Positions 47,916 through 64,000 are shown, counted from the stretch's first letter. The stretch is 64,000 bases of DNA from Escherichia coli (GCF_001677475.2 NZ_CP015229.1); one strand, 5' to 3'. Numbers and translations are program-made. Notes: generated by a model not told the origin, from the letters alone.

Positions 47916-48962
47916 TTAACGTCCTGCTTTCAGCTTCTGATAATACTCTTCATAAATGCTGCTGGCTGCGCCAACGTCATTCTGCCATTCACCATTTTTA
48001 ATGGTTTCAGCATCCGGGTAGAGCGTTTTATCGTTCGCCACTTCCGGGCTTAACAGCTTACGCGCCGCAAGGTTTGGCGTTGGATAACCGATAGTTTCGG
48101 CAACCTGTTTTGCCACATCCGGGCGCAGCAGGAAGTTGATCAGTTTCAGCGCGCCTTCTTTGTTTTTGGCATTCGCCGGAATTGCCAGGCTGTCCATCCA
48201 GAAAATGCCGCCTTCTTTCGGCCACACGACGTCAATTGGTGTACCCGCCTGGCGTGCAACGAAAGCAGAACCGTTCCAGATCATGCCGAGGTTAACTTCG
48301 CCTTCCATGTACGGGTTAGCCGGGTTATCGGAGTTAAACGCTGCGACGTTTGGCATCAGTTTTTTCAGCTCGTTATATGCAGCTTCAATCTCTTTCGGAT
48401 CGGTGGTGTTACCGGAATAGCCCAGCTTACGCAGCGCCATCTGGAACACTTCACGGGCATCGTCGGTCAGCAGCAGGCTGCCTTTGTACTCAGGCTTCCA
48501 CAGATCGGCCCAGCTGGTAACGGATTTCGGATCCACCGCATCACCGTTAACGCCAATCGCCGTCGCACCCCAGATATACGGAATGGAGTAGTCGTTATTC
48601 GGGTCAAAAGGCTTGTTGAGCATGTCTGGATCGAGATTGCTGAAGTTCGTTAACTTCGACTTGTCGATCTTCTGGATCATCCCTTCTTTACGCATTTTAT
48701 CGACGTAATAGGTTGAAGGAACCACCAGGTCATAGGCACCGTCTTTGTACGTTTTCAGCTTGGCATACATGGTTTCGTTCGACTCGTAAGTCGAATAGAT
48801 AACCTTAATACCGGTTTCTTTGGTGAACTGTTCAAGCAGTCCTGGCGGCACGTACTCGGTCCAGTTGTAGAAATACAGCGTGTTGTTGTCATCGGCGTGA
48901 GCGGCGCTCATGCCCAGTGCCAGAGCACCCGCCGCGAGCAGGTGGCGTGACCATTTTTTCAT
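47916..48962 (-). CDS. potD: spermidine/putrescine ABC transporter periplasmic binding protein
   Basis: 348 aa with signal peptide. Confidence 0.95.
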   Translation of the reverse strand: MKKWSRHLLAAGALALGMSAAHADDNNTLYFYNWTEYVPPGLLEQFTKETGIKVIYSTYESNETMYAKLKTYKDGAYDLVVPSTYYVDKMRKEGMIQKIDKSKLTNFSNLDPDMLNKPFDPNNDYSIPYIWGATAIGVNGDAVDPKSVTSWADLWKPEYKGSLLLTDDAREVFQMALRKLGYSGNTTDPKEIEAAYNELKKLMPNVAAFNSDNPANPYMEGEVNLGMIWNGSAFVARQAGTPIDVVWPKEGGIFWMDSLAIPANAKNKEGALKLINFLLRPDVAKQVAETIGYPTPNLAARKLLSPEVANDKTLYPDAETIKNGEWQNDVGAASSIYEEYYQKLKAGR

Positions 48963-49753
48963 TTAACGTCCCCTGTGTTACCTTTCGTTTTATCACGAGC
49001 AATAAGCTGGCTGGCAATAACCATCACCAGCGACAGCACCAGTAATATGGTTGCCAGCGCGTTAACTTCCGGCGATACGCCGACTTTGACCATCGAATAA
49101 ATTTTTAACGGCAGAATTTCATAACTTGGTCCGGTGACGAACGAAGAAACTACCACATCGTCCATCGACAGGGTAAAGCTTAACACCCAGCCCGCCGCTA
49201 CCGCTGGCATTGCCAGTGGCAGAATGATTTTTCGCAGAATGGTAAATTCGCTGGCACCGAGATCTTTCGCCGCTTCCAGCATTCGCACGTCAAAACCTTT
49301 CAGGCGCGAATACACTGTCACCACCACAAATGGCAGGCAGAAGGTGATATGCGAGAACAGCAGCGACCAGAAGCCAAGCTGAATACCCAGCAGCATAAAC
49401 AGCACCAGCAGCGAAATCGCCATCACGATATCTGGTGACATCATCACTACAAACAGCATTCCGCTAACGAACGGCTTACCACGAAAGCGATAACGGTACA
49501 GTGCAACTGCCGTCAGTGAACCGATAAGCGTAGCAAACGTCGCCGAAAACACCGCCATTGTTAGTGAATGCTGCGCTGCCTGTAACAGGCTGTCGTTGTT
49601 CATCAGCAGGCTATACCATTTGGTGGTAAAACCCTGCCAGTTGATGCCAAAGCGCGAGCTGTTAAAGGAGTTCACAATCAAAATAATGATTGGGATATAC
49701 AGGTACGCGTAGATAGCGGTCATAAAACCGCCGCGAAGCAGTCGACCGATCAT
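48959..49753 (-). CDS. potC: spermidine/putrescine ABC transporter permease
   Basis: 264 aa, six-TM permease with ABC EAA-loop region. Confidence 0.95.
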   Translation of the reverse strand: MIGRLLRGGFMTAIYAYLYIPIIILIVNSFNSSRFGINWQGFTTKWYSLLMNNDSLLQAAQHSLTMAVFSATFATLIGSLTAVALYRYRFRGKPFVSGMLFVVMMSPDIVMAISLLVLFMLLGIQLGFWSLLFSHITFCLPFVVVTVYSRLKGFDVRMLEAAKDLGASEFTILRKIILPLAMPAVAAGWVLSFTLSMDDVVVSSFVTGPSYEILPLKIYSMVKVGVSPEVNALATILLVLSLVMVIASQLIARDKTKGNTGDVK

Positions 49754-49919: not shown

Positions 49920-51038
49920 TCAAATAACCAACTTAACCCATTCCTGACCTCGAGTATCGTTATAGCGATCGGTGGTTGCCTGGACTTTATGTCCTAGTAA
50001 TGTTTTTGTATCGATACCCTGTGCACGGTACAGCCGTTCTGATAGAGAGCGTTGTTCATGAAATGTTGGCGGAGTTTTTCCTGCTGGTGGAATTATCCCA
50101 GCCAGATCCCGTGCTTTGGCAAAGTAGTCGCTCAGGTTGTCTTTACTCATCGACTTCGGTTGTTTCTGGTGCCGACTATGGATTAGATATGGACTTAATA
50201 TTCTGTCTCGGCACCCATCAATAACTTCTTTTAACGTTATCCCAATGGCATCACAGCGTAGTGTAAGCGGTAACGCCAGACGCATTCCGGTTTTTCCTTG
50301 GGTGATATGCAAGTGTTCGTTCCACACATCTGAAAAACGCATGTGGCAAATGTCATCACGGCGCTGACCAGTAACAATCGCAAGAAGCATTGCGTTACGG
50401 ATAAAGTGTTTTTCAGGCGTTGCGTTGTAAATTTTTTGCCAGTCTTCCAGGGTGAGTCTGGCTCTGGTTACTTTAGGGATTGGTTTACGGGTAGCCTCCG
50501 GAGGATTCCATCCAGGAGGAACTTCCCCTGCATGCTGTGCTTCTTTATAAATATCAAGCCATAATCCGCGATTTACTCTCGCTGTGCTGACCATGTCTTT
50601 ATCCAGCCACTCATCCAGTATTAATGCAAAGTCTCTTACTTCCAGTTCTTTCAATGGGTGGTTTCCCAGACGGGAAACCAGGAATGCAGCCATTCGCGCT
50701 TTTTCTTTGTGGGTTGTAGCTGCAATATCTCCATTTTTCAGGCGCGCGTCCTGTATTTTCAGATATCGATCAACCCATGCCTTTAATCTGATACCCCGAC
50801 GTTTTGTTGCTGATGGACTTTCATCAATTTTGCGCATGAAATATTCAGCTTCTGCTGCAGCTATTCGCTGATTGGCTGTGGAAGCGATTTTTTCTGCCTT
50901 ACCTTTGTCTGTTCCGAGTCCGTGAAATTTTCCAGTCACAGGATTTTTATACTGGTAGTAAACTCTGCCAGTTCTGCGATCAAACTTTTCGTAAAGACCG
51001 GCTACGTCAGTGCTGTTTTTTCGTGGCCTCGGTGACAT
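49920..51038 (-). CDS. int: lambda-family tyrosine integrase
   Basis: 372 aa; C-terminal catalytic region HEQRSLSERLY…LLGHKVQATTDRYNDTRGQEW resembling lambda Int. Confidence 0.93.
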   Translation of the reverse strand: MSPRPRKNSTDVAGLYEKFDRRTGRVYYQYKNPVTGKFHGLGTDKGKAEKIASTANQRIAAAEAEYFMRKIDESPSATKRRGIRLKAWVDRYLKIQDARLKNGDIAATTHKEKARMAAFLVSRLGNHPLKELEVRDFALILDEWLDKDMVSTARVNRGLWLDIYKEAQHAGEVPPGWNPPEATRKPIPKVTRARLTLEDWQKIYNATPEKHFIRNAMLLAIVTGQRRDDICHMRFSDVWNEHLHITQGKTGMRLALPLTLRCDAIGITLKEVIDGCRDRILSPYLIHSRHQKQPKSMSKDNLSDYFAKARDLAGIIPPAGKTPPTFHEQRSLSERLYRAQGIDTKTLLGHKVQATTDRYNDTRGQEWVKLVI

Positions 51039-51337: not shown

Positions 51338-53809
51338 TTAAAAATCAGCCTGATTCGGGATCAGTTTTTGCCAGATAGCTGAAACGTATTTTGCCTGGTG
51401 ACGAGCGTCATCAAGTGCATTATGGCGCTCACCTTCGAATGGGATAGCAGTTCTGGCATCGAAGTCTATGGTTTTCCCCAGCTCAACGATTGTGCGTACA
51501 TCGCGATCGTTGTAGTAACGCCACGGGCAGGGGATCCCCTGCCGTTCGTATGAACGGCGCAAAATCGTGTTGTCGAAGTTGGCTCCATTTCCCCAGACCT
51601 GAACAAAAAACTCACCGGAGTTTTCGGCGATAAATTCCCGCAATTGCAGTAGTGCATCATCTAACGGGATTTCATCGGTCATAATGGCAGACTGCGCTTC
51701 ACGTGATTGCTTCAGCCACCATTTAATGACGTCACGATCAATGACTCCGCCAGCAGTATCCAGATCGATGGTCTTGCTAAATTCCGGTCCCATATCACCG
51801 GTTTGCGGATCGAAAAATATTGCACCTATTGAGATAATCGGGGCATCAGGATTTTTTCCCATGGTTTCAAGGTCGATCATCAGATGAATCCCCGCTCTGC
51901 TGGTGGATGTGAGATTATGATGACTGTTCATCTTAATTAAGGGATCTGTCGCCTCGCCAGTTTTATTATCGCTGGCGTGATGCTGATTGCCGCCAGGGTT
52001 CTCCTTGTGTGGATGTTCAGCGCCTTCCATTTCCTCCGGATCATTTTCCTGAACTTCAGGCTGATTCTCTTCATCGAATATTTCCTGGTATGTTGCGTCA
52101 CCCATCACCGCGCCACAATCAGGGCAGTTGCCGCCACCGCTCTGACCGCAGGCTGTGCAGACTTTTTCCGGTTCCTGTTGCGCTACTGGCTCAGGTTGTT
52201 TCGTTTCTGGCTCGTTTTGTTGCGTATTTGGGCTGTTTTGTTCCGCTTTCTGGTCGTTCTGTTCCGTTTCTTGCTGGTTCTGGTTCACAGAATCGCGGGT
52301 TTCAATCCCCTTCACCCATTTCGGATCATTCGGATCGCTAATCCCTGCAACAAATTCACCACGTGATACTGCAAGCAGTTCATCGGCGTCATGCTGGCTG
52401 ATATTGGCTGCCTGCATAATTTTGTTTACTTCGTCAGCGGTAACTTTTACCGGCCCTGGTTGTGCGGTCGTGTCAGATGCACCAGTATTTTGTTGTGAAC
52501 CTGAGTATGTACCGTTTTTGCGGGCGAAATATTCTTCTTTCGTGATTTCAGTAGCCCCGGCAGCCAGTGCCTTATCCAGACCAGAAAGTTTGTTTGCGCG
52601 ACCGTATTTTTCGCCATCCTTGTCGGTGAAGAGGAAGTAGAATGGCCCCTCACGCTCTACAGATGGTTCGACTTCCACTTTGCATTCGGTTTTTTCGTTG
52701 TCCGGAATTGCCGTTTCCACTGCATCAGTTTCTGGTACTGGCGACGAGAGAGTATCAGTTGCGCTCTGATTTCTTCCTTCATCTTCAAACACGCCCTTTG
52801 TAGTCAGGTATTCAGTAATGTATTTGTTCAGTGCCACAGGGTCTTTGTGAATGTCGATCGGACGTTCACGAACAAGGCCAAAAATAGTCTGGCGGTCGTA
52901 GCGAAGGGCATCAGGCTGTTTGCGCATTGATGCCGAGATACGCTTCCAGTCTTCGCGGTCGTTGTCGATAACTTCATTTTTTGCCCAGCGATGGATGCTG
53001 CCATCAATGTTTCCGACATCCACATCACCAGGCCAGAGAGCGTAGGCCAGTTCGTCATCCAGTGTTTTCCATGTCTGCTTGTATTCGCGATGAGTGGCAG
53101 CAATGACCGGGCTGATTTTTCCTGTTGAATTTTCAGTGTGCTGTTGATTGGCTCTGGCGCGGGCGAGATCAACAACAGACGTGTATTTTCCGGTTTCCTT
53201 GCGTTCACCTTCGCGACGTTTTTTCCAGATGCGCATCTCTGCCTGAATTTCGGGCCATTTGGCACCAGGCTTACATTTATGCTTAACCCACCCGATGGCA
53301 TGCAGCTTAAGCTCCGGATACATGGCGTTAACTTCTGGCATTTTCATCAACGCTTCAACGATATGTCCGTCGAATGTTGCCATGTCTTCCTGCAACAATT
53401 CCTGCGCGCTAATCACCATATCAACGGTGATGTTTTCACATGTACCGAACTTAACCAGGACCGCGTTCTGTACTTCAAGGGACAGCTTGTCAAAATTGAC
53501 GTTAATAGGATCGGATTCTGGTTCGACCGGAATAAAGGAAGCGGATTCCTCATCCCAGCGGTTTTCCTGCATATATTCGGTATCCCAGGAGTCGATAGCA
53601 GGGCGGGGCATGCCGGGTTTATCTTCGCAGACAAGAAATTTATAAGCGCAGTCCTGAGCAGCAGGATATTGCTCCAGGAATTGCCAGGTAAATTTGGCAC
53701 GGGCGCGGCGTTCATCACCGGCTTCAATGGCAGTGGCTACAGCAACTGCGCCCTCTTCTTTTATTGCCTGTTCGTCCGGAATGGCGGCGCAAATAAAGAC
53801 TTTACTCAT
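51338..53809 (-). CDS. large phage protein with C-terminal DEDDh 3'-5' exonuclease domain (often annotated exonuclease VIII-like)
   Basis: 823 aa; C-terminal IHLMIDLETMG…GNGANFDNTIL…HNALDDARH (DnaQ-like Exo I/II/III motifs); central CTACGQSGGGNCPDCG zinc ribbon; Q/E-rich linker. Confidence 0.8.
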   Translation of the reverse strand: MSKVFICAAIPDEQAIKEEGAVAVATAIEAGDERRARAKFTWQFLEQYPAAQDCAYKFLVCEDKPGMPRPAIDSWDTEYMQENRWDEESASFIPVEPESDPINVNFDKLSLEVQNAVLVKFGTCENITVDMVISAQELLQEDMATFDGHIVEALMKMPEVNAMYPELKLHAIGWVKHKCKPGAKWPEIQAEMRIWKKRREGERKETGKYTSVVDLARARANQQHTENSTGKISPVIAATHREYKQTWKTLDDELAYALWPGDVDVGNIDGSIHRWAKNEVIDNDREDWKRISASMRKQPDALRYDRQTIFGLVRERPIDIHKDPVALNKYITEYLTTKGVFEDEGRNQSATDTLSSPVPETDAVETAIPDNEKTECKVEVEPSVEREGPFYFLFTDKDGEKYGRANKLSGLDKALAAGATEITKEEYFARKNGTYSGSQQNTGASDTTAQPGPVKVTADEVNKIMQAANISQHDADELLAVSRGEFVAGISDPNDPKWVKGIETRDSVNQNQQETEQNDQKAEQNSPNTQQNEPETKQPEPVAQQEPEKVCTACGQSGGGNCPDCGAVMGDATYQEIFDEENQPEVQENDPEEMEGAEHPHKENPGGNQHHASDNKTGEATDPLIKMNSHHNLTSTSRAGIHLMIDLETMGKNPDAPIISIGAIFFDPQTGDMGPEFSKTIDLDTAGGVIDRDVIKWWLKQSREAQSAIMTDEIPLDDALLQLREFIAENSGEFFVQVWGNGANFDNTILRRSYERQGIPCPWRYYNDRDVRTIVELGKTIDFDARTAIPFEGERHNALDDARHQAKYVSAIWQKLIPNQADF

Positions 53810-53902: not shown

Positions 53903-54094
53903 TTAAAGTCCTGCCGGTATTTCGTTATTATTAGTGTGAGTAGTTTTATCTACCGGATAACAGTTACCGGGAATTTTTTGTTCTGCTGCTGCAGCCATGC
54001 ATTCTTTCATTGAACCGTATAAGCCAGTCACCAGCTCAAGAGATTCGCCGGAAACAAGATAAACTGTCAGAACGAGTGCAAATGTTGTATTCAT
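53903..54094 (-). CDS. small membrane-anchored protein (kil-position), unknown function
   Basis: 63 aa with N-terminal hydrophobic helix; start overlaps upstream gene stop (ATGA). Confidence 0.55.
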   Translation of the reverse strand: MNTTFALVLTVYLVSGESLELVTGLYGSMKECMAAAAEQKIPGNCYPVDKTTHTNNNEIPAGL

Positions 54095-54279
54095 TGTTTA
54101 TATCCTTTTTGCAGCAGGTCCAGACGAGCCAGCATTGAAGGAATGCATACTTCATTTAACAGGTCCTGCTCGAGTTTTCTCTGCTTAATGGCGTCTTCAA
54201 TAAATGTTTTGTCTCCAGTGATAACGCCAATTTCGAAACGAAGTTCAGACGTGCTGGCATTACATGATAACTTTTCCAT
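54091..54279 (-). CDS. small hypothetical protein (kil-position)
   Basis: 62 aa from MEKLSCNASTSEL with GAGGA SD 9 nt upstream; the track's 97-aa version lacks an RBS and overlaps an inverted repeat. Confidence 0.55.
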   Translation of the reverse strand: MEKLSCNASTSELRFEIGVITGDKTFIEDAIKQRKLEQDLLNEVCIPSMLARLDLLQKGYKQ

Positions 54280-54444: not shown

Positions 54445-54856
54445 CTTTTAAAAAAGGGCGGCAGAGCAGTCACGGAGTAAAACTGATACCGCCAAATGTC
54501 ACCAGAATATTGATAACAGAGGGCGTTGTAGCGGGGTTGTCACTTAAGCGTATGGTCAACCTGACAACCCGGTGTCCTCAACGGGGAAAGGCGTCCCTCC
54601 CACCCCCGCCATACTTACCGCCGCGCCATTTCGCGGGTCGCCACAACCGGAAGCGCACGGTCGAATTAAATTTAACGACACCGTGCAGTGAGACGAACTT
54701 CGCCGTGCGCTTTCGTGTTGTGTGCCTGCTTTTAACCACGTCAGGCGAGGTGGTTTCCGTCATTCCCCAACGACAGGAAATCTGTATAATCTGGGTATCC
54801 CCAACGATCCAAGGAAATCATATGACAGAGCAAAGAGCACAAGCAGGTGATGGTGT

Positions 54857-55303
54857 ATGGACCGGGATGATATTCTTGACAGAATTTTTTATGGCTATTT
54901 TCTTGAGCAACTGTTTTCTGTAGCGACTGGTCGTCTCGATAAACTTCTCTCAGTAGTGAGTATTATCCTCGGTTCATCTGTCATTGGCGGATTCATTCCG
55001 GAAATTTCTGGCGTTTTTATTGTTGTGATCGCAACCGTCCAAACGATTTATGGATTCGGACAAAAGTCAGGTAATACCATGAGAAAATCCGCAGAATATT
55101 TGCAGCTTTTTGATGATGCAGAAAAATATTCTGATTCGGAATTGAAAATTCAGTTAAAAACTCTGGAAAAAACAGATGATCATATTTGGTCATCACTTAA
55201 AGATATTGCGATCTTAAAAACACAGATCAAAATAGGCGTCTCCATCGAACAACAAGAGAAGTTGCCCACAAAATCCAAATTGATGCGATTTCTTTGTGGT
55301 TAG
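54857..55303 (+). CDS. 2-TM membrane protein on opposite strand at the Rac sieB position; candidate superinfection-exclusion / abortive-infection effector
   Basis: 148 aa, SD AGGTGA 6 nt upstream; two adjacent hydrophobic helices (LSVVSIILGSSVIGGFIP / ISGVFIVVIATVQTIYGF) then charged C-terminal tail; convergent with flanking minus-strand genes. Confidence 0.65.
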   Translation: MDRDDILDRIFYGYFLEQLFSVATGRLDKLLSVVSIILGSSVIGGFIPEISGVFIVVIATVQTIYGFGQKSGNTMRKSAEYLQLFDDAEKYSDSELKIQLKTLEKTDDHIWSSLKDIAILKTQIKIGVSIEQQEKLPTKSKLMRFLCG

Positions 55304-56010: not shown

Positions 56011-56126
56011 ACGCCTCGGGCTGGCTACTTAATCCCTGACCACTACCGGGTAACTCTAGGTATTGCCCTGTATTGTGTGGGACGGGATGGGTTGGTATGG
56101 GAAAACTATAGGAAATGCCTAATTGC

Positions 56127-56147
56127 TTGTCAATAGGCTATGCCTAA
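56127..56147. promoter_or_regulatory. operator-like site, downstream copy of 21-bp inverted repeat flanking repressor gene
   Basis: ttgtcaataggctatgcctaa is the exact reverse complement of 56772-56792; additional tgcctaat half-sites at 56114-56124 and 56160-56170. Confidence 0.6.
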
Positions 56148-56241
56148 TGATTTGGGTGCGACCTAATAGGTGATGGTTTGTGGGAGAGGTAGTAGGAGTT
56201 AACTAACGGGAACTAGGAATTTCCCGTCGGACCATATAAGT

Positions 56242-56718
56242 TTAAGTTCCTGTCTTGGTGATGTTCTGGCTTTTCCGTTTTGATTCTTGATTTTTCAGAT
56301 AGTTAGCTACCTTCATTTCCATTGCGGCAATGTAGGCGCGAACGTCATGATCAACCCAACTAGGCTCCGTAGCATTTCCAGATAAGAGGAAAGCCACAAT
56401 TGCTCTTTTTTCATCAGAGGCGGCTTGATAAAGGCTGTTTATGTCTAAAAGTTCACTTTTTGTATCTGAAGTGGATGGGGTTGGTATGGGGTATTCGTTA
56501 AGCCCCCAATGCTCTGGACCAACCACATCAGAAAAGAAACGCCATAGTTCTGGAAGTTTGTCTTTACTTATCGAACCTTTCTTAATCCAGTCATGGATTG
56601 ATGGTGGTTGGACTTTGAAATGACGTGCGATTTCCGCCTTTGATTTGACGGCTCCTGATGCAATTTTTTTGTTAATGGCCTGCTCTATCGCTCGGCCTAA
56701 GTCTTTACCACTAAGCAT
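56242..56718 (-). CDS. prophage repressor, RacR-like (HTH, no S24 peptidase domain)
   Basis: 158 aa with N-terminal HTH (KAEIARHFKVQPPSIHDWIKKG); divergent from Cro-like gene; same length and position as Rac RacR. Confidence 0.75.
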   Translation of the reverse strand: MLSGKDLGRAIEQAINKKIASGAVKSKAEIARHFKVQPPSIHDWIKKGSISKDKLPELWRFFSDVVGPEHWGLNEYPIPTPSTSDTKSELLDINSLYQAASDEKRAIVAFLLSGNATEPSWVDHDVRAYIAAMEMKVANYLKNQESKRKSQNITKTGT

Positions 56719-56771
56719 TGCTTAATAGTCTCCTATGCGCATCGCGTTAGGCAATACCTACTCTCGAAGCG

Positions 56772-56792
56772 TTAGGCATAGCCTATTGACAA
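56772..56792. promoter_or_regulatory. operator-like site in divergent repressor/cro promoter region
   Basis: ttaggcatagcctattgacaa plus neighbouring ttaggca and attaggctaagcctaat near-palindromes between repressor and cro-like genes. Confidence 0.6.
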
Positions 56793-56842
56793 TCACATTA
56801 GGCTAAGCCTAATATTATTGTGTGTTTTTTGGAGTTCATTCG

Positions 56843-57166
56843 ATGAAAAAAGATAACTATTCATTCAAACGAGCTTGTGCTGTTGTCGGTGGGCAATCAG
56901 CAATGGCTAGGCTTTTAGGTGTATCTCCTCCAAGCGTAAATCAATGGATCAAAGGTGTACGTCAGTTGCCTGCTGAGAGATGTCCTGCGATTGAACGAGC
57001 AACAAAAGGTGGTGTCCTGTGTGAAGAACTTCGTCCTGATGTTGATTGGACATACTTACGACGCTCGTCATGTTATTCGCAGAATATGTCGATGAAGCAA
57101 CCAAATGACGAAAACGATCATACCCGAAGCATCAAGAGGCAAATGATTCATGAAAATCAAACATGA
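56843..57166 (+). CDS. Cro-like HTH regulator (YdaS family)
   Basis: 107 aa from ATG with GGAG SD; HTH ARLLGVSPPSVNQWIKGVRQLP; divergent from repressor. Confidence 0.75.
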   Translation: MKKDNYSFKRACAVVGGQSAMARLLGVSPPSVNQWIKGVRQLPAERCPAIERATKGGVLCEELRPDVDWTYLRRSSCYSQNMSMKQPNDENDHTRSIKRQMIHENQT

Positions 57167-57575
57167 GCATATCCGCATGGCGATGAATGCCTGGGCATAC
57201 CCTGATGGTGAGAAAGTTCCTGCAGCTGAAATAGCCCGGACTTATTTCGAACTGGGAATGACGTTCCCGGAACTGTACGACGACAGCCATCCGGAAGCCC
57301 TGGCCCGTAATACCCAGAAAATTTTCCGTTGGCTGGATAAAGACACCCCTGATGCTGTTGAAAAAATGCAGGCTCTGTTACCGGCGATCGAAAAGGCGAT
57401 GCCGCCTTTGCTGGTGGCCCGTATGCGCAGCCACAGTTCTGAGTATTACCGTGAGATTGTCGAACGGAGGGATCGGTTGGTGAAAGATGTCGACGATTTT
57501 GTTGCGTCAGCGGTTGTTTTGTATGACCAGATGAATCGCGGCGGCCCGGCAGGAAATGCCGTGGTGATGCACTAA
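57150..57575 (+). CDS. YdaT-like (CII-like) regulatory protein
   Basis: 141-aa ORF immediately after the Cro-like gene with overlapping start, as ydaS-ydaT in Rac. Confidence 0.65.
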   Translation: MKIKHEHIRMAMNAWAYPDGEKVPAAEIARTYFELGMTFPELYDDSHPEALARNTQKIFRWLDKDTPDAVEKMQALLPAIEKAMPPLLVARMRSHSSEYYREIVERRDRLVKDVDDFVASAVVLYDQMNRGGPAGNAVVMH

Positions 57576-57582
57576 CAGCACG

Positions 57583-58566
57583 GTGTTCGGGGGTTTTATG
57601 AGCAGCAAGCTTCATGGTCTTGTCTGGGAAGGATGCGCCTTCACCGGCATGATCTTATCCCGGGTGGCAGTGATGGCCCGTCTTGCAGACTACAGCAATG
57701 ACGAGGGCGTGTCATGGCCTGCTATTGAAACTATCCGGCGTCAGATCGGTGCAAGAAGTGAATCCACAGTGAAATCGGCTATTGCAGAACTGGCGAAAGA
57801 GGGCTGGCTGACGAAGGAAGAGCGTAAGGTCGGTGGGCGTAATGTAAGCAATATCTATCGGCTTAATGTGGAAAAACTCGAAGCAGCAGCTGCGGCGGCG
57901 CGTGAGTCATATAAACCGAAAAGAAAAATTAGCCCGGCAAAAAATGACCCGTTAACAGTTGACCCGTCAAATATTGACCCCTCAACGGTTGACCCGTCAA
58001 ATTTTGATGGATCAACTGTTGATAAAAAACTGCCGATTAGGGGGACGATGATTGACCCCGATCAGTCAGTATTAAAACCTGATCCGTCAGATGAAAGATC
58101 TTCTTGTCCTGACGTTTCACTGCCGGACAAAAAACAATCATCACCAGTTGAGCGATTTCTGGAGAAACACCCGGATGCGCATACCTGGAATGTGCAGAAG
58201 CGACAGTGGGGTACCCGTGAGGATGTCGCCTGTGCGCAGTGGATTTGGGGACGGGTTGTTGCGTTGTATGAACAGGCCGCCAGTGATGATGGTGAGGTAT
58301 CACGCCCCAGAGAACCTAACTGGACGACCTGGGCGAATGATGTGCGCATGATGCGTATGCTGGATGGACGTAGTCACCGGCAGATTTGTGAAATGTTTGG
58401 GCGTGTCCAGCGGGATTCGTTCTGGGTAAAAAACATCATGAGTCCGGCAAAACTCCGGGAAAAATGGGATGAGCTGGTTATTCGTCTGGGGCGTTCGCCT
58501 GTACAGCGTTGCGTGAATCACATTTCTGAACCGGATACCGAAATTCCGCCGGGGTTCAGGGGGTAA
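57583..58566 (+). CDS. phage replication initiation protein (O-like, winged-HTH N-terminus)
   Basis: About 322-327 aa (ATG at 57598 has GGGGG SD); N-terminal HTH region; internal iteron array encoding repetitive linker PLTVDPSNIDPSTVDPSNFDGSTVD. Confidence 0.75.
   Translation: MFGGFMSSKLHGLVWEGCAFTGMILSRVAVMARLADYSNDEGVSWPAIETIRRQIGARSESTVKSAIAELAKEGWLTKEERKVGGRNVSNIYRLNVEKLEAAAAAARESYKPKRKISPAKNDPLTVDPSNIDPSTVDPSNFDGSTVDKKLPIRGTMIDPDQSVLKPDPSDERSSCPDVSLPDKKQSSPVERFLEKHPDAHTWNVQKRQWGTREDVACAQWIWGRVVALYEQAASDDGEVSRPREPNWTTWANDVRMMRMLDGRSHRQICEMFGRVQRDSFWVKNIMSPAKLREKWDELVIRLGRSPVQRCVNHISEPDTEIPPGFRG
57945..58090. repeat. iteron array (putative prophage origin of replication) inside replication gene
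   Basis: Direct repeats tgacccgttaac, ttgacccgtcaa (x2), ttgacccctcaa, ttgaccccgatc, tgatccgtcaga at 14-16 bp spacing. Confidence 0.7.
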
Positions 58567-62576: not shown

Positions 62577-62820
62577 ATTCATTCCGTATGGGAATTCCCA
62601 TATCGGGCAAAAACGGTTTGCTGTAAAGCGAGAGTTAAGTAGAATTGCTGCGGGTGCTTGAGGCTATCTGCCTCGGGCATGCCGCCGTAAGGCAGACAGA
62701 GAAAAGCCCCAGTTAACATTACGCGTCCTGCAAGACGCTTAACATTAATCTGAGGCCATATCTATGACTTGCACACGTAGGTTAGCCTCTTACGTGCCGA
62801 AAGGCAAGGAGAAGCAGGCT

Positions 62821-62976
62821 ATGAAGCAGCAAAAGGCGATGTTAATCGCCCTGATCGTCATCTGTTTAACCGTTATAGTGACGGCACTGGTAACGAGGAA
62901 AGACCTCTGCGAGGTACGAATCCGAACCGGCCAGACGGAGGTCGCTGTCTTCACAGCTTACGAACCTGAGGAGTAA
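62821..62976 (+). CDS. hok: Hok/Gef-family type I toxin (HokD/RelF-like)
   Basis: 51 aa MKQQKAMLIALIVICLTVIVTALVTRKDLCEVRIRTGQTEVAVFTAYEPEE; AAGGAG SD; in-frame upstream ATG at 62764 gives a 70-aa mok-like extension. Confidence 0.85.
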   Translation: MKQQKAMLIALIVICLTVIVTALVTRKDLCEVRIRTGQTEVAVFTAYEPEE

Positions 62977-63423: not shown

Positions 63424-64000
63424 GTGCGGGTATTACTTCGACCTGTTCCGGTGCCGGAACTCGGGCTGGTGGTCCTTAAGCCGGGCCGTGAATCCATGCA
63501 GGTATTTCATAACCCTCGAGTGCTGGTGGAGCCGGAACCGAAAAGCATGCGCGGTCTGCCGTCCGGAGTTGTTCCTGCCGTTCGCCAGCCGCTGGCGGAA
63601 GATAAATCATTGCTGCCATTTTTCAGCGACGAACGGGTGATTCGTGCTGCCGGCGGCGCTGGTGCACTGTCTGACTGGCTCCTGCGTCATGTTAAATCCT
63701 GCCAGTGGCCTCATGGTGACTACCATCACAGTGAAACCGTCATACATCGTTACGGTACCGACGCGATGGTGTTGTGCTGGCACTGCGACAACCAGCTGCG
63801 TGACCAGACCTCAGAATCACTTGAGCAACTTGCTCAACAAAACCTGACAGCATGGATGATTGACGTCATCCGTCACGCAATAAGCGGTGCGCAGGAGCGG
63901 GAATTATCGCTGGCTGAATTATCCTGGTGGGCTGTCTGCAATCAGGTGGCGGACGCACTACCGGAGGTAGTATTACGTCGTTCTCTGGGGTTACGTGCGG
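63424..64000 (+). CDS. hypothetical Cys/His-rich protein (possibly DUF968/YdfU-like), 3'-truncated by window end
   Basis: GTG start 1 nt after previous stop; CQWPHGDYHH…CWHCDNQ motif; open to window edge. Confidence 0.5.
   Translation, partial: MRVLLRPVPVPELGLVVLKPGRESMQVFHNPRVLVEPEPKSMRGLPSGVVPAVRQPLAEDKSLLPFFSDERVIRAAGGAGALSDWLLRHVKSCQWPHGDYHHSETVIHRYGTDAMVLCWHCDNQLRDQTSESLEQLAQQNLTAWMIDVIRHAISGAQERELSLAELSWWAVCNQVADALPEVVLRRSLGLRA

Follow-up and report, generated by a model that had tools for sequence, protein, structure and literature searches.

What a racR-ydaS-ydaT-like module does in a prophage other than Rac is the question raised by positions 56242-57575 of a 64,000-nt stretch of Escherichia coli DNA (GCF_001677475.2, NZ_CP015229.1), the whole of which is referred to here as the window. 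A previous interpretation made without database searches (the sequence-only reading) had placed here a 158-aa repressor gene divergent from a Cro-like gene of the YdaS family and followed by a YdaT-like gene, an arrangement borne out by the three open reading frames (ORFs) of the ORF list (Table 1). Our analysis indicates that the region is very probably the lysis-lysogeny switch, or immunity region, that controls an Sp6-like lambdoid prophage integrated between potC and potB, and sequence comparison suggests that the switch would be active in the source strain. The system is already known, since Sakai Sp6 has an identical RacR and an identical Cro-like protein, and the CII analogue shares ~96% identity with a protein that has been crystallised.

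Table 1 Features of the switch and of the visible part of the prophage, with positions in the window.
Feature	Position	Strand	Evidence
ABC-transporter permease ORF	48959-49753	-	Position annotated potC in nearest genome
Lambda-type integrase, prophage left end, adjoining potC	49920-51038	-	Pfam Arm-DNA-bind_1 and Phage_integrase
823-aa exonuclease with C-terminal Rv2179c-like 3'-5' exoribonuclease domain, at the position of Rac RecE	51338-53809	-	
dicB, cell-division inhibitor	54091-54279	-	Pfam DicB 3.6e-38, full length
DicF sRNA, cell-division inhibitor	54456-54507	-	Rfam, 77 bits (gathering score 48)
OL/PL-like region downstream of racR	56105-56166	-	Pattern search and promoter scan
racR, prophage maintenance repressor, CI analogue, 158 aa	56242-56718	-	NCBIfam NF049929
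OR-like operator region	56711-56812	.	Pattern search
PydaST, PR analogue (TTGACA, 18-nt spacer, TAATAT)	56786-56815	+	Promoter scan, 10/12 matches
ydaS, Cro-like HTH regulator, 107 aa	56843-57166	+	Pfam PF15943 (YdaS_toxin)
YdaT-box ATGATTCATGAAAATCAA, inverted repeat with the ydaT ATG in its spacer	57143-57160	+	Pattern match
ydaT-family gene, CP-933P subtype, CII analogue, 141 aa	57150-57575	+	Pfam PF06254
Replication initiator (O-like), first gene after the switch	57598-58566	+	PHROG 391 'replication initiation O-like', 2.6e-105

Genomic site and prophage content

The prophage can be followed from its left end to the end of the window (position 64000), with its late half lying beyond, and the late region was approximated from the prophage of strain 08-00022. 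This strain has the best-matching genome in a search of 5426 complete E. coli genomes; its lambdoid prophage of ~43 kb lies between potC and potB and aligns with 94% of the visible prophage (96.3% identity), while its host flank is 97.2% identical. The gene upstream of potD is free of IS1 in the window, unlike its counterpart in 08-00022. The left flank encodes an ABC solute-binding protein and a permease, which the nearest genome annotates as potD and potC, and the combination of int adjoining potC with potB at the far end is found in relatives. In O157:H7, Sp6 is the prophage that occupies potC|potB (PMC8190617; Sakai annotation), and its integrase shares 98% identity with that of the window, while sequence comparison detected no significant similarity of the latter to the Rac integrase IntR. 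As K-12 Rac is located at ttcA (MG1655 Rac region), this is not a Rac prophage in the strict sense, which requires insertion at ttcA and an IntR-type integrase, and the sequence-only reading was right to assign the module to a different chromosomal site.

The left arm further encodes an excisionase and the 823-aa exonuclease, together with DicF and DicB. The latter two are known from prophage Qin; here they belong to a prophage with RacR, not DicA, as its repressor. On the opposite strand of the left arm, at approximately the position held by sieB in Rac, a 148-aa ORF (54857-55303, +) appears hydrophobic by eye; its sole match was PHROG 6315, a family of unknown function, with none in Pfam or PADLOC, and it could be a superinfection-exclusion gene. 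To the right of the switch, the O-like replication initiator is unrelated to the replication genes of Sp6 and Rac, and a DUF977/Ren-like protein is also encoded. Rfam additionally identified a sok antitoxin RNA in the early-right region (62652-62826, +; 110.6 bits), which points to a type I toxin-antitoxin locus of the hok/sok type, and relatives have hokD annotated at the equivalent position.

The RacR repressor and its operators

The repressor matches the RacR equivalog profile NCBIfam NF049929 with 246.8 bits (cut-off 200), residues 1-145 aligning with positions 1-149 of the 150 in the profile. Its sequence identity is 92% with K-12 RacR and 100% with the Sakai Sp6 repressor ECs_1506. The repressor has no match in Pfam at E<=0.01, and even at E<=10 the Pfam search returned no Peptidase_S24 domain, the only matches being weak ones of HTH type over residues 22-61. 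The protein is therefore not a SOS-cleavable repressor of the LexA/CI type, which is defined by a C-terminal S24 autopeptidase domain. The absence of this domain had been recognised in the sequence-only reading, and the Sp6 repressor was previously noted to be without the peptidase domain on which SOS induction depends (PMC2669165). No sequence similarity to lambda CI was detectable, and a single-sequence AlphaFold model was all-helical but poor (pLDDT 50.8).

Binding to the racR-ydaS intergenic region and repression of ydaS/ydaST have been shown for K-12 RacR only (PMC5700373, PMC9638921), where operators of the consensus TTAGGC-N3-GCCTAA were mapped in the intergenic region by DNase I footprinting (PMC9638921) and, together with PydaST, by footprinting and mutagenesis (PMC9638921; PMC5700373). 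In the window, three near-palindromes of this form occupy 56747-56761, 56772-56786 and 56798-56812, with 0-2 mismatches, the last being perfect, and a weaker operator-like site (56711-56725) overlaps the ATG of racR. The perfect palindrome overlaps the -10 hexamer of PydaST, as operator O1 coincides with the ydaST promoter in K-12 (PMC9638921), and the OR-like sites are the same as those of K-12 Rac. The repressor is thus accompanied by the cognate operators expected of the RacR family, located in the divergent intergenic region and overlapping the ydaS promoter.

A second cluster of operator-like sites (56108-56122, 56133-56147 and 56152-56166) lies downstream of racR, where it overlaps a leftward promoter-like sequence running from 56133 down to 56105 (TTGACA-17-TATAGT, 11/12 matches), and is conserved in K-12 Rac and in Sp6. 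The concentration of the half-site is pronounced, with 7 of the 16 TTAGGC hexamers in the window falling within 56117-56812 (0.28 expected, Poisson P ~2e-8). In the Rac literature, which deals with the racR-ydaS intergenic region, we found no description of this OL-like cluster, nor did we find in the literature a demonstration that RacR binds it. Judging from the arrangement of the sites, RacR probably controls the PL-like promoter as well. Such control would fit the 40-70-fold rise of leftward Rac genes (ydaF, ydaG, kilR and others) when RacR falls (PMC6765115).

With operator clusters on both sides, racR is flanked by two tripartite operator regions, as is cI in lambda. This bears on the proposal that the locus follows the Rac layout and not that of lambda, which has to be corrected: order and orientation are those of lambda, with a repressor gene between two operator clusters followed by a cro-like gene, a cII-like gene and replication genes, and only the protein families differ.

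A mosaic of Rac-type and CP-933P-type components

The gene divergent from racR encodes a member of the Cro-like YdaS family, with matches to Pfam PF15943 (4e-30, 103.8 bits, gathering score 30), P22_Cro (1e-8) and HTH_3, and its best solved relatives in the PDB are Cro proteins. It is 85% identical to K-12 YdaS and 100% identical to ECs_1507 of Sp6. The ORF has an alternative GTG start at 56822; the ATG at 56843 is preceded by GGAG, is the annotated start in the nearest genome and aligns with residue 1 of K-12 YdaS.

The third protein belongs to the YdaT family (Pfam PF06254, YdaT_toxin; 2.8e-10, 40.9 bits, gathering score 21) and also matches PHROG 163, 'CII-like transcriptional activator' (2e-47). 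With these matches, the homology of all three proteins to RacR, YdaS and YdaT claimed in the sequence-only reading is confirmed. The YdaT of the window is of the CP-933P subtype, being ~96% identical to PDB 8BT1 (CP-933P YdaT; E 3e-89), 91% identical to ECs_1508 of Sp6 and 31% identical to the YdaT of K-12 Rac. CP-933P YdaT is a tetrameric, DNA-binding protein with a POU-like HTH that recognises TTGATT-N6-AATCAA (PMC9986795), and it is a CII analogue activating a PRE-like promoter (PMC8630535).

An operator of the form (T/A)TGATT-N6-AATCAA is present at the ydaS-ydaT junction. This YdaT-box has one mismatch to TTGATT-N6-AATCAA, and the prophage portion of the window contains no second site of this kind. 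The box agrees in every letter with the footprinted YdaT-box of K-12 Rac, through which Rac YdaT turns on a reverse promoter within ydaS and increases the expression of racR (PMC11879457), and it differs by one base from the CP-933P operator (PMC9986795).

The switch is accordingly a natural hybrid, in which Rac-type RacR, YdaS and operators are combined with a CP-933P-type YdaT. Alignment with K-12 Rac gave ~90% identity at the DNA level over the ydaF/ydfA-like gene, racR, the racR-ydaS intergenic region and ydaS, and on into ydaT; this identity collapses at ~57180, ~10 codons into ydaT and right after the shared YdaT-box. A second mosaic joint lies at ~57500, near YdaT codon 120, where identity to Sakai Sp6 ends. 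One may speculate, although we consider it unlikely, that the YdaT-box serves both as a conserved recombination joint and as a cross-compatible regulatory socket for the swapping of immunity and replication modules among lambdoid prophages, and that RacR-type switches place Qin-type DicF and DicB under a repressor answering a non-SOS signal, for which OxyR provides a lead. In K-12, OxyR acts on PydaST.

Proposed operation and induction of the switch

In the mechanism that we propose, RacR would act as maintenance repressor on the intergenic TTAGGC-N3-GCCTAA operators, shutting PydaST and autoregulating racR, and would probably also occupy the OL-like cluster overlapping the PL-like promoter. 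The left arm, comprising ydfA/ydfB-like genes, DicF, DicB, the exonuclease, xis and int, would thereby be kept silent. When RacR falls, PydaST would fire and YdaS, as the Cro analogue, would push the prophage toward the lytic state and excision; in K-12, excision is affected by YdaS and not by YdaT (PMC11014345). YdaT, as the CII analogue, would bind the YdaT-box, which spans the ydaT start codon, and activate a reverse promoter inside ydaS, boosting racR. Because RacR has no S24 domain, the switch is expected not to be tripped by RecA-stimulated self-cleavage, and induction would be spontaneous or would follow some other signal. The sequence-only reading had reached the same expectation, and the behaviour of Sp6, whose RacR and YdaS are identical, agrees with it: Sp6 circularises spontaneously, whereas mitomycin C did not induce it and the amount of circular DNA fell (Asadulghani et al., PMC2669165).

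Alternative explanations

A different reading would make the module a toxin-repressor or addiction system, in which YdaS and YdaT are toxins held in check by RacR and the loss of racR or of the module kills the cell. The sequence-only reading inclined this way, pointing out that loss of racR is lethal in K-12 through derepression of ydaS/ydaT and suggesting that the locus may behave as an addiction-like switch. The K-12 part of this argument holds, as deletion of racR there requires the removal of ydaS-ydaT, and YdaS or YdaT expressed ectopically is toxic (PMC5700373, PMC5700377), and both families are still named 'toxin' in Pfam. Its transfer to this locus is poorly supported: the CP-933P subtype of YdaT to which the protein belongs showed no detectable toxicity (PMC8630535), so that the toxicity of K-12 YdaT is not simply transferable, and in Rac itself toxicity was later found from YdaT only and not from YdaS (PMC11014345). 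Addiction as such is also doubtful, since silencing is purely transcriptional, for which reason the describers of the system judged post-segregational killing unlikely (PMC5700373), and since deletion of the whole of Rac, or its excision, rescues K-12 cells (PMC11014345). The critique by Jobling regards these proteins as regulators, not toxins, and a repressor that is essential only while the prophage is present as normal prophage biology (PMC5917428). The switch proteins and their neighbours gave no match to the PADLOC defence models. We therefore consider an addiction function very unlikely. Deletion of racR here may well be harmful, because loss of RacR would derepress the prophage, including DicF, DicB and the replication genes, but this would be the usual consequence of losing a prophage repressor and not addiction.

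If the region is instead taken as an immunity switch, as we prefer, it might still be inducible by the SOS response through a LexA-controlled antirepressor, encoded elsewhere in the prophage, that inactivates RacR in the manner of the Gifsy prophages. Repressors of other lambdoid prophages that lack a cleavage domain, such as those of Salmonella Gifsy, are induced in this way, and Sakai Sp6 carries genes annotated 'antirepressor'. Against this, a pattern search found no LexA box (CTGT-N8-ACAG) in the window, and the two matches in the related prophage are G+C-rich and occur at approximately chance frequency. Ten scanned unnamed genes of that related prophage are without any Pfam family, hence without an antirepressor domain, and after mitomycin C treatment circular Sp6 DNA went down, not up (PMC2669165); we give an antirepressor of this kind very little credence. 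It is just as improbable, in our assessment, that the module is a decaying, non-functional immunity remnant of a cryptic prophage. Many Rac-like elements are defective, gpJ is a pseudogene in the nearest relative and Sp6 has head and tail defects (PMC2669165), but the three ORFs are intact, as are all operators and the YdaT-box, the RacR and YdaS of the window are those of a prophage that excises spontaneously and can be transferred to K-12, where it lysogenises at the same site (PMC2669165), and 1085 of the 5426 complete E. coli genomes, a large number of them O157:H7, carry the racR-operator segment with at least 99% identity.

Comparison with known systems

An immunity switch of this type can be placed among several described systems, and RacR, YdaS and YdaT have been treated as analogues of CI, Cro and CII, respectively (PMC5917428, PMC9638921, PMC8630535). 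The closest is Sakai Sp6 (ECs_1506 repressor, ECs_1507 ydaS and ECs_1508), which shares the insertion site potC|potB and whose DNA is ~99% identical from the OL-like region to YdaT residue ~120. The two differ in the last ~20 residues of YdaT and in everything rightward, and also in the left arm, where Sp6 has a truncated exonuclease and no annotated dicB, while the window has a full-length exonuclease, DicF and DicB. K-12 Rac resembles the locus in its conserved operators, PydaST, OL-like cluster and YdaT-box, the last being identical. It differs in the integrase and attachment site (ttcA as opposed to potC/potB), in the replication genes (YdaU/YdaV as opposed to the O-like protein) and in the division inhibitor of the left arm (KilR as opposed to DicF/DicB). 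The paaR2-ydaS-ydaT module of CP-933P/Sp12 in O157:H7 has a YdaT ~96% identical to that of the window and an operator one base apart, but its repressor is PaaR2 and a paaA2-parE2 toxin-antitoxin pair lies downstream, whereas no such pair follows racR here.

The likeness to the cI-cro-cII region of lambda extends to gene order, orientation, the tripartite operators that flank the repressor gene and the establishment of the repressor from a reverse promoter under a cII-type activator (PMC5917428). Unlike lambda, the repressor has no S24 domain and RecA-mediated induction is not expected, and the analogy of YdaS to Cro is incomplete because K-12 YdaS reportedly does not repress racR (PMC9638921).

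Implications

The inference that a repressor without an S24 domain is not induced through RecA-mediated cleavage is right, but it has already been published and tested (PMC2669165). The deletion of racR (in K-12) and induction by mitomycin C (in Sp6) have likewise largely been carried out already on identical or near-identical parts. As for the signal that inactivates RacR-family repressors, which are not open to cleavage through RecA, the locus is no more tractable than K-12 Rac or Sp6. Its significance lies in correct annotation, as the switch of an Sp6-like prophage and not as a toxin-antitoxin system, and it matters little beyond that.
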